Origin: Escherichia coli
GTDB lineage: Bacteria > Pseudomonadota > Gammaproteobacteria > Enterobacterales > Enterobacteriaceae
DNA length: 64,000 bases
Assembly (NCBI RefSeq): GCF_030013595.1
Contig: NZ_CP122768.1
Direction: 5' to 3' (one strand)
The translations under genes and the position numbers were made by a program. The notes under the pieces were generated by a model, which was not told where the DNA came from, ran no database searches, and saw only the letters and a list, made by a program, of their open reading frames with translations. This document shows positions 25,134 through 26,686 of this stretch, in pieces. The first letter of the stretch is position 1; each line of letters opens with the position of its first letter.

Positions 25134-25318
25134 CGTCTTCCCCTCTTGCCCTGTTTGACCATCAGGACGCCGTTAACTATTGCGTGACGCTCGCCTTTGC
25201 TGTCTCTGTTGTACTTGAGCACTGTTCCTCTTGCACAGGAAAGCCTCCTCGCCACTTCGGTCTGATTGCCTCGTGTCTGGATAAGAAGTTCTGGTATCGT
25301 TTGAATTGTGGCGTTCAT
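25130..25318 (-). CDS. ninH: NinH-like protein
   Basis: 62 aa, motif GNQTEVARRL…RGTV.KY as in λ NinH; position just upstream of Q. Confidence 0.75.
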   Translation of the reverse strand: MNATIQTIPELLIQTRGNQTEVARRLSCARGTVLKYNRDSKGERHAIVNGVLMVKQGKRGRR

Positions 25319-25677
25319 ACGTTCTCCAGTTCGGTGATTTTTATTCCAAGCCTTCCGCCTGGTACTTTCACACCACGAATTACGCGAATGTCATCGAATT
25401 GCTCGTCGTCTTCCGCAAATCCGGCGTGGATAAGGGAGTCGAGTAAACCTTTCAGGATGTTGTCGAGGTCGCGGCGGCGGGAGTCTGGAACGTCTGCGAT
25501 GACTTTGATACGGAGTCGTGATTTGGTGAAAATGTCTAACTTGAGTTGGCGAATGATTTGCTGAACGTCTTTTCGGTATTTCTGGCCTTTATCGCTGATG
25601 TAGTATTGGCTTCCCCGTCTTCGCCAGTAGGTATTCACCGACGGCGGGTAAGGAAGCACAAACTGATATTCGTTCAT
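25315..25677 (-). CDS. rusA: RusA-family Holliday junction resolvase
   Basis: 120 aa, DSRRRDLDN motif typical of RusA. Confidence 0.8.
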   Translation of the reverse strand: MNEYQFVLPYPPSVNTYWRRRGSQYYISDKGQKYRKDVQQIIRQLKLDIFTKSRLRIKVIADVPDSRRRDLDNILKGLLDSLIHAGFAEDDEQFDDIRVIRGVKVPGGRLGIKITELENV

Positions 25678-25964
25678 GGCTTAATCTTCCCCTCCTTCAG
25701 CAGTATCGCCTGCGTCCTGATCACGCCTTCGAGGTGGTAAAGTCTGGCGTCTTTGTTGTCGAGATTATGGGTGCGTCGGTCGATTTCATCGTGACACGCG
25801 CTACAAGCCCATGCGCCGATCAGGTCGTCAGGCTTCATTCCCGTTCCGCAAATTCCAGCCATCCGGTAATGTGCCAGAACTGTAGTTTCAGGATTGCCAT
25901 TGCATACGCCGTAAATACGTACCTGACATTCTCTGCCGCGTGCTTCTTTGCGTAGATTGGCCAT
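25674..25964 (-). CDS. YbcO-like (DUF1364) putative nuclease, Cys-rich
   Basis: 96 aa with C…C…C..C pattern; co-linear with rusA as in DLP12. Confidence 0.6.
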   Translation of the reverse strand: MANLRKEARGRECQVRIYGVCNGNPETTVLAHYRMAGICGTGMKPDDLIGAWACSACHDEIDRRTHNLDNKDARLYHLEGVIRTQAILLKEGKIKP

Positions 25965-26686
25965 TAAGCAGCCTCCCCTGTTACTTTCAGCATTCCGTTA
26001 TCGAGCAGCTTTCTGGTCAGCCACTGTTGGCCACGCCCGGTGATTTTTGTGGTGAACGATATCTGTATTCCGTGATTTGTATTGACCGCTGTTTCTTTCA
26101 CTGTGAAATAGCCGCGATCCATATATTCCTGCATTGGCACATTGCGCCGGGAACCTGAAGCAATAAGGATTTTGTGATCGCGCATCCACGCAAACAGTTT
26201 GTTTTGACCAATTCCAACAACCTTTGCAAAGTTTCCAATCAAAATTCCGCTGGCCTCGCCAACGCGATCGGCAAACTCAACTTTAGGTGCGGCAATTGCG
26301 AGCTGGTTTTCCAGTTGCATTTTCTGCTCAGCAAGATCAGCAGCAAGGCGCAACGCTTCTGGTAGCGTTTTGGGGATATTAGCCGCAGTTTCTTCAAGCT
26401 CTCGCCAGCGGTCAACAAGGCGAGCGGTGAACTCTGGCGACAACTGGGCAACAACAACAATACTATCTCGCTTACCTTGTTCGCCTTCGAAGACGTAATG
26501 CTCGTACTGAACATTGAACCCTAAGTTATTGATTCTTTCGGAAACCTCAATTTGAGGAAGCCGGATAACACCATTTTTAGCCAGCGTTTCGATGGTACGT
26601 TTCACATTGTCATGACGCTTACCCACCAACTCAGCGATTTCAATGCTTGTCATTTTGATGGCATTGCCATTTATTAACTCATTCAT
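25964..26686 (-). CDS. phage antirepressor / regulatory protein (Rha-like N-terminus, KilAC/ANT C-terminus)
   Basis: N-terminal MTSIEIAELVGKRHDNV Rha-type motif; C-terminal ANT-like region. Confidence 0.75.
   Translation of the reverse strand: MNELINGNAIKMTSIEIAELVGKRHDNVKRTIETLAKNGVIRLPQIEVSERINNLGFNVQYEHYVFEGEQGKRDSIVVVAQLSPEFTARLVDRWRELEETAANIPKTLPEALRLAADLAEQKMQLENQLAIAAPKVEFADRVGEASGILIGNFAKVVGIGQNKLFAWMRDHKILIASGSRRNVPMQEYMDRGYFTVKETAVNTNHGIQISFTTKITGRGQQWLTRKLLDNGMLKVTGEAA

Follow-up and report, generated by a model that had tools for sequence, protein, structure and literature searches.

A known HK022-type nin allele carrying roi, ybcO, and rusA in a lambdoid prophage of Escherichia coli

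Comparative analysis of a 64,000-nucleotide stretch of an Escherichia coli genome (contig NZ_CP122768.1 of assembly GCF_030013595.1; hereafter the window, with positions counted from its first letter) revealed a lambdoid prophage carried on the minus strand (open reading frame (ORF) list and Pfam domains), whose nin region departs from that of phage lambda between ninF and Q. Three minus-strand ORFs exactly fill positions 25315-26686 between ninF and ninH and encode a 240-amino-acid (aa) protein with pRha and KilAC domains (roi), a YbcO-like protein (ybcO), and the Holliday-junction resolvase RusA (rusA). Together with the adjoining ninH, these genes form a nin allele of the HK022/HK97/HK620 type that is already known and has long been described with those genomes. 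It is likely that this allele represents one acquired block in which RusA takes the resolvase role and Roi is a separate regulator that does not trigger induction of its own prophage.

The genes roi, ybcO, and rusA are genuine, intact, and conserved. A preliminary description made from the sequence alone had named a Rha/KilAC-type protein, a YbcO-like protein, and RusA, and both these identities and their coordinates agreed to the base with the ORF list and the Pfam assignments. A megablast search of positions 25000-27000 against annotated phages returned 394 records, with full-length matches to phages E212 (99.9%), Gally, mEpX2, HK140, HK633, HK620, HK022, and HK97, where roi or "DNA-binding protein Roi" is followed by gp66/hkbD (DUF1364), rusA, ninH, and Q. 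Pairwise blastn aligned HK022 with the window continuously over 26821-24410 (94.5% DNA identity over 2.4 kb), and phage E212 was 99.8% identical over 6.8 kb. The nin regions of HK022, HK97, and HK620 (roi, gp66/hkbD, rusA, ninH, Q) have their genes in the same order as the window, with the same overlaps where one gene meets the next. HK022 differs in roi codons about 21-64, the helix-turn-helix patch, where the window allele is of the H-19B type, and upstream, where its genes are replaced in the window by lambda-type ninB, the gene for a Dam methylase, ninE, and an extra 135-aa ORF (PHROG 1511). A 2-kb probe matched 2005 of 5426 complete E. coli genomes, 507 of them covering at least 80% of the probe, and a Roi relative was encoded in 552 IMG/VR stretches. 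In the 80 closest IMG/VR loci Roi keeps its position straight after ninF and before the junction-nuclease gene, with the full order NinF-Roi-YbcO-RusA-NinH wherever a locus was long enough, apart from two without a YbcO match.

The mosaic character attributed to the nin region was borne out by pairwise blastn against lambda, in which lambda-type blocks are interrupted by the HK022-type block. Lambda-type DNA was aligned at 29033-27949 (P, ren, ninB; 98.7% identity), 27421-27255 (ninE; 97%), 26821-26684 (ninF; 96.4%), and 25143-24238 (Q to tR'; 97.5%, lambda 43875-44781), with an extra 59-bp match at 24078-24020 (89.8%) beyond the tRNA genes. Between the two recombination junctions, located at 26684 and 25143 (Table 1), lambda ninG-ninH-ninI (1440 bp) has been swapped for roi-ybcO-rusA-ninH (1540 bp). 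The window ninH is a different allele because lambda homology is absent between these positions; its product is 57% identical to lambda NinH at the aa level, and blastn gave no match to lambda ninH. Searches by tblastn with lambda proteins detected NinB, NinE, NinF, NinH, and Q, while the entire 64 kb gave no match to NinC, NinD, NinG, or NinI. The reported absence of ninG was therefore correct, whereas its replacement had been drawn too narrowly, as the substitution spans ninG, ninH, and ninI and not ninG alone. The lambda nin region resembles that of the window in its position within the pR operon between ren/ninB and Q, in NinB, NinE, NinF, and Q proteins that are 88-99.5% identical, and in a slot that holds a junction-resolving nuclease. 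It differs in that the lambda resolvase is Rap, compared to RusA plus YbcO in the window, and in having no counterpart of roi, which is an addition. Relative to lambda, a gene for a Dam-family N6-adenine methylase (27425-27952, minus strand) was also observed in place of ninC-ninD, and a 135-aa ORF (26848-27255, minus strand; PHROG 1511) was inserted between ninE and ninF.

Table 1. Features of the prophage nin region and its surroundings, with positions in the window.
Feature	Position	Strand	Evidence or remark
Rz	22041-22562	-	
Lysozyme	22541-23074	-	
P21-type holin	23746-23961	-	
Two tRNA genes	24080-24235	-	
Q antiterminator, lambda-type, downstream operon end	24510-25133	-	Pfam Antiterm; lambda Q 99.5% identical
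ninH, HK022-type allele, part of the substituted block, not lambda-derived	25130-25318	-	Pfam Phage_NinH, 92.9 bits
Right recombination junction	25134..25143 (lambda 43875)	-	Lambda homology resumes 10 nt upstream of Q ATG; blastn
rusA, Holliday-junction resolvase, 120 aa	25315-25677	-	Pfam RusA; PDB 1q8r
ybcO-like gene (DUF1364, His-Me finger/HNH putative nuclease, 96 aa)	25674-25964	-	Pfam; PDB 3g27
roi (pRha+KilAC protein, 240 aa)	25964-26686	-	Pfam; PHROG; HK022 Roi alignment
IHF consensus, perfect match, AATCAATAACTTA	26522-26534	-	Conserved island within divergent roi patch
13-bp perfect dyad CCTCAAATTGAGG, candidate Roi operator (inferred)	26545-26557, centre 26551	-	Allele alignments
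Left recombination junction	26684 (lambda 42434)	-	ninF-stop/ninG-start overlap; blastn
ninF, lambda-type	26679-26855	-	Pfam NinF; lambda homology 26821-26684 at 96.4%
135-aa ORF (PHROG 1511)	26848-27255	-	
ninE	27252-27428	-	
Dam-type methylase	27425-27952	-	
ninB	27949-28389	-	
ren	28463-28753	-	
P	28750-29451	-	
O	29448-30347	-	

These junctions are consistent with roi-ybcO-rusA-ninH having been acquired as one block, probably by recombination at gene boundaries. Comparison with other phages shows which genes stand in for one another. The preliminary description had set the antirepressor-like gene in the place of ninG, a view contradicted by roi lying directly upstream of ninG/rap in H-19B, PA5, and phi419, with PA5 identical to VT2-Sakai across the junction probe. 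Because the roi-ninG junction probe (371 bp) was covered to at least 80% in 185 phage records and the equivalent roi-ybcO probe in 34, the interchangeable units are ninG and ybcO-rusA, both coding for junction-processing nucleases, with roi as an independent optional gene upstream. In the nin regions of the Shiga toxin (Stx) phages 933W, VT2-Sakai, and H-19B, roi likewise follows ninF or its equivalent and its C-terminal half is nearly identical to that of the window at the DNA level. These phages differ from the window in that roi is followed by ninG and not by ybcO-rusA, and several Stx phages carry other alleles of the helix-turn-helix patch.

The second and third genes of the block code for the nucleases. 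RusA matched the Pfam RusA family (62 bits; cutoff 22.8) and, over its full length, PDB structures 1q8r (3.1e-26, residues 1-119) and 2h8c, with 98% identity to HK022 RusA and 43% to the RusA of prophage DLP12. The catalytic residues of RusA are Asp70, Asp72, and Asp91, plus Lys76 (E. coli numbering), and D70, D72, K76, and D91 were all invariant in the alignment with the DLP12 and HK022 proteins. YbcO matched the Pfam YbcO family (150 bits) and PDB 3g27 (2.6e-40), and was 97% identical to HK022 gp66 and 71% to DLP12 YbcO, with the metal-binding set Cys13, Cys21, Cys39, Cys54, Cys57, and His58 invariant among the three. YbcO/DUF1364 proteins have been classed as His-Me fingers in a survey that gives their recombination role as a hypothesis and already notes that DUF1364 genes typically sit beside those for RusA, Q, and an "antirepressor" (PMC5714182). 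No biochemical report of YbcO nuclease activity was found. As RusA and YbcO are both intact, the simplest reading is that they take over the function of Rap. RusA would fill the role of lambda Rap/NinG, probably with the adjoining His-Me-finger YbcO, and family knowledge together with the conserved catalytic residues suggests that it would process recombination and replication intermediates in lytic growth. The two proteins probably cooperate, judging only from their constant adjacency.

The gene arrangement also constrains when Roi could be made. The end of ninF lies over the roi ATG in an overlap of 8 nt (ATGAATGA), roi and ybcO overlap by 1 nt (TAATG), and ybcO/rusA, rusA/ninH, and ninH/Q overlap by 4 nt each, leaving no room for a promoter of roi's own because the genes follow one another without intergenic space. 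A strong tR2-like terminator (28437-28414) lies upstream of ninB and so of roi, and the genes from ninE to Q would be read from the pR transcript after N antitermination past it; as their stop and start codons overlap, they are probably translationally coupled. A scan for minus-strand promoter consensus sequences returned pR' (24467-24439) only, a weak negative from an insensitive scan that also missed pR, and no LexA box was found between 24000 and 29500. A terminator-like hairpin in roi (26264-26248) lies in the invariant coding part and was discounted because such sites are no commoner than in shuffled sequence. The prophage repressor cI (31102-31803) contains HTH_3 and Peptidase_S24 domains (Pfam), the latter a hallmark of RecA-stimulated self-cleavage. 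Roi would be made only after cI inactivation and N action and hence too late to start the induction of its own prophage. The preliminary description had proposed that an antirepressor close to Q could allow induction in trans by another phage or act against the repressors of co-resident prophages. Given the overlapping genes in the pR delayed-early operon, the lack of a nearby LexA box, and the Peptidase_S24 domain of cI, a part for Roi in triggering its own prophage is unlikely. Roi may still act in trans on other prophages, for which its likeness to P1 Ant1/Ant2 gives some support, or on RecA.

The 240-aa protein is, by sequence comparison, an orthologue of HK022 Roi. The two proteins share 87% aa identity and are colinear over 240/241 aa (E 1e-156), the window protein is 100% identical to the "DNA-binding protein Roi" of phage E212, and it falls in PHROG 63 at 1.2e-99. 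Profile searches found both domains named in the preliminary description, Phage_pRha at residues 12-99 (36.7 bits; cutoff 29.9) and ANT/KilAC at residues 126-228 (115 bits), and an AlphaFold2 model (predicted local distance difference test score of 77) contained two winged-helix-like domains. HK022 Roi, characterized in 1996 as a sequence-specific DNA-binding protein, reportedly contains a helix-turn-helix and has a binding site within roi itself, closely linked to a site for integration host factor (IHF), which is said to stabilize binding. Point mutants of roi reportedly permit HK022 growth on IHF-deficient hosts, and its C-terminal half is said to be similar to P1 Ant1 and KilA. The PHROG and RefSeq label for the family is "anti-repressor", which goes back to what KilAC/ANT is called in Pfam; NCBIfam has no family for Roi or YbcO, and PADLOC gave no defense-system match for the roi, ybcO, or rusA products. 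Two papers that cite its first description (Clerget & Boccard 1996, J Bacteriol 178:4077) present HK022 Roi as binding DNA and having a phenotype linked to IHF, and not as an antagonist of a repressor. Of the earlier "Rha/KilAC-type antirepressor", the domains thus stand while the antirepressor identity gives way to that of a Roi orthologue described as DNA-binding. In the proposed explanation Roi would be a separate, optional regulator whose Rha-type winged helix binds a site in its own gene beside the IHF site; such binding is on record for HK022 Roi and is suggested here by the 87% identity, the conserved IHF consensus, and an adjoining dyad. Speculatively, its most likely effect would be autoregulation or a modulated pR read-through towards Q that could alter late gene timing.

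The main rival to this explanation takes Roi as a true antirepressor, with the KilAC part inactivating a repressor as P1 Ant1/Ant2 do with C1 and acting in trans on heteroimmune prophages or incoming phage. This reading draws on the KilAC match of 115 bits, on the PHROG and RefSeq labels, and on homology to a repressor-binding protein, which was found with P1 Ant1 in its C-terminal part only: Roi residues 73-234 are 59% identical to Ant1 178-342 (E 3e-67), within the C-terminal 165 residues including KilAC that Ant1 shares with Ant2, and the P1 record annotates both proteins as antagonizing C1 by complex formation. The same record gives a predicted IHF site inside ant1, a further likeness to roi. 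However, the 177 N-terminal residues of Ant1 are absent from Roi and unrelated to its pRha domain, and the sole characterized orthologue is known, from the papers mentioned above, for DNA binding and a phenotype linked to IHF. In addition, P1 ant belongs to an immunity region and is controlled by C4 antisense RNA, whereas roi is embedded in a delayed-early operon and shows no independent regulation; none of an own promoter, a LexA box, or an immunity-region position that would separate its expression from that of the repressor was detected, with the promoter scan being insensitive. KilAC does not define antirepressor activity, as it is also found in the host-killing protein P1 KilA and in AriS of Listeria, whose KilAC domain acts against the SOS response and not against a repressor (PMC9043618). 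On balance an antirepressor function of Roi is improbable.

The roi gene is itself mosaic, and its divergent part carries a candidate site for Roi binding. In DNA alignments, codons about 21-64 (window 26497-26624, minus strand), the helix-turn-helix part, are about 55% identical to HK022, compared to about 97% for roi outside this patch. A perfect IHF consensus forms a conserved island within the patch (Table 1), one of four perfect matches in 64 kb, and HK022 has a perfect consensus (AATCAATGATTTA) at the same aligned position that is the sole perfect match in its 7.8-kb locus. The IHF site inside roi that characterizes the Roi group was accordingly found here as a consensus match only. A perfect 13-bp dyad lies 10 bp upstream of the IHF site, and its centre is shared by other alleles with different dyads, namely HK022 (CCTGCATTGCAGC; 5/6 pairs), PA5/HK629 (CCCCCAATGGTGG; 5/6), Edno5 (4/6 pairs), and phi419 (3/6 pairs), three dyad pairs being kept complementary across alleles by changes on both sides. 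This covariation rests on five or six allele classes from annotated phages, and a Roi scan of IMG/VR gave the same allele only (98-100% identity), with no added classes. The dyad was kept in 71 and the IHF site in 73 of 74 readable IMG/VR loci, which are near-identical in any case. A hairpin was rejected since the arms are one base apart; the one-base centre makes the dyad look like a dimer binding site. Across its 723 bp roi contains three perfect 13-bp palindromes (centres 26664, ATGGCAATGCCAT; 26551, CCTCAAATTGAGG; and 26102, TTTCACAGTGAAA), compared to a mean expectation of 0.19 by codon shuffling, with none of 2000 shuffles reaching three. The dyad is a candidate Roi operator that would travel with the recognition helix, a reading that leans on the reported position of the HK022 binding site. 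A premature stop at roi codon 44 (CAA to TAA), inside the dyad element, was observed in the Stx1a-converting phage Stx1_120412, and IS629 insertions occur in roi of some Stx2a phages (PMC4587872), so that roi is dispensable in some prophages.

Two further proposals extend what Roi could do. In one, the roi patch of about 130 bp, which encodes the recognition part of the winged helix, would be a specificity cassette of protein plus operator that, if the dyad is the Roi operator, is swapped as a unit among lambdoid phages, and the invariant P1-Ant-like KilAC part could then hit a common target of host or prophage (repressor or RecA); we regard this as a long shot, and if true, co-resident prophages would be linked by Roi as a regulator of cross-talk. 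In the other, Roi would be a dual regulator like AriS, with pRha binding DNA and KilAC dampening SOS/RecA, so that the induction of every SOS-dependent prophage in the same cell would be tuned. Inhibition of the SOS response has been shown for the KilAC domains of three AriS-like proteins of Listeria, and the pRha+KilAC architecture listed in that study is exactly the one found in Roi (PMC9043618). Yet the likeness to Listeria AriS is one of domain architecture with assayed proteins from Firmicutes, the closest relative of the Roi KilAC is P1 Ant and not AriS, and Roi has no reported phenotype of this kind, making an AriS-like role more doubtful still than that of an antirepressor.

The arrangement had also been likened to that of DLP12-type prophages. 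DLP12 resembles the window in carrying ybcO beside rusA upstream of a Q homologue, in the order ninE-ybcO-rusA-ylcG-quuD, and lacks roi, ninF, and ninH; its flanks are ninE and ylcG-quuD, with quuD as a different antiterminator, compared to ninF-roi and lambda-type ninH-Q in the window. Derivation of the module from a DLP12-type prophage can be dismissed at the DNA level, as DLP12 shares only 183 bp with the window, in ybcO and at 73% identity (RusA 43% and YbcO 71% at the protein level), while HK022 matches the whole block at 94.5%, which identifies the arrangement as HK022/HK97/HK620-type instead.

Other parts of the prophage also showed features of note. Directly after lambda-type pR' and tR' (about 24262-24240), genes for tRNA-Thr(TGT) and tRNA-Asn(GTT) occupy 24080-24235 (minus strand) and from this position would be expressed only when Q antiterminates; lambda and E212 have no tRNA genes there, their homology ending at 24238 and picking up again at 24078. 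The slot next to cI that rexAB occupies in lambda codes here for a 285-aa protein with an NYN (RNase-like) domain (31931-32788, plus strand), with only a weak PADLOC match (HEC-09, E 2e-4), and this gene is a candidate exclusion or defense gene that may be expressed in the lysogen. A 230-aa ORF (PHROG 13652; 21253-21945, plus strand) that looks like a moron lies within an island of 33% GC, oriented against its neighbours Rz and the small terminase gene. The lysis cassette is unusually interrupted by about 670 bp of low-GC DNA (23075-23745) between holin and lysozyme, which holds a DUF1327 ORF (23523-23741, minus strand) and a 98-aa ORF (23202-23498, plus strand; PHROG 25324). The integrase gene (39034-40104) adjoins ybhC (40239-41522), placing the prophage at or near the lambda attB region. 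Coverage of positions 20000-44000 reached no more than 63% in any of the complete E. coli genomes compared, and the whole mosaic combination is therefore unrepresented among those genomes.

As a discovery the module matters little, having been described along with the genomes of HK022, HK97, and HK620 and being matched by over a third of the complete E. coli genomes. The correction to its reading is nevertheless useful, in that ninG and ybcO-rusA are the units that swap in lambdoid nin regions and roi is an independent add-on, and that "antirepressor" annotations based on KilAC are not to be read as evidence of induction cross-talk. For Roi itself, the intragenic IHF site together with the allele-specific dyad may provide a cheap experimental handle.

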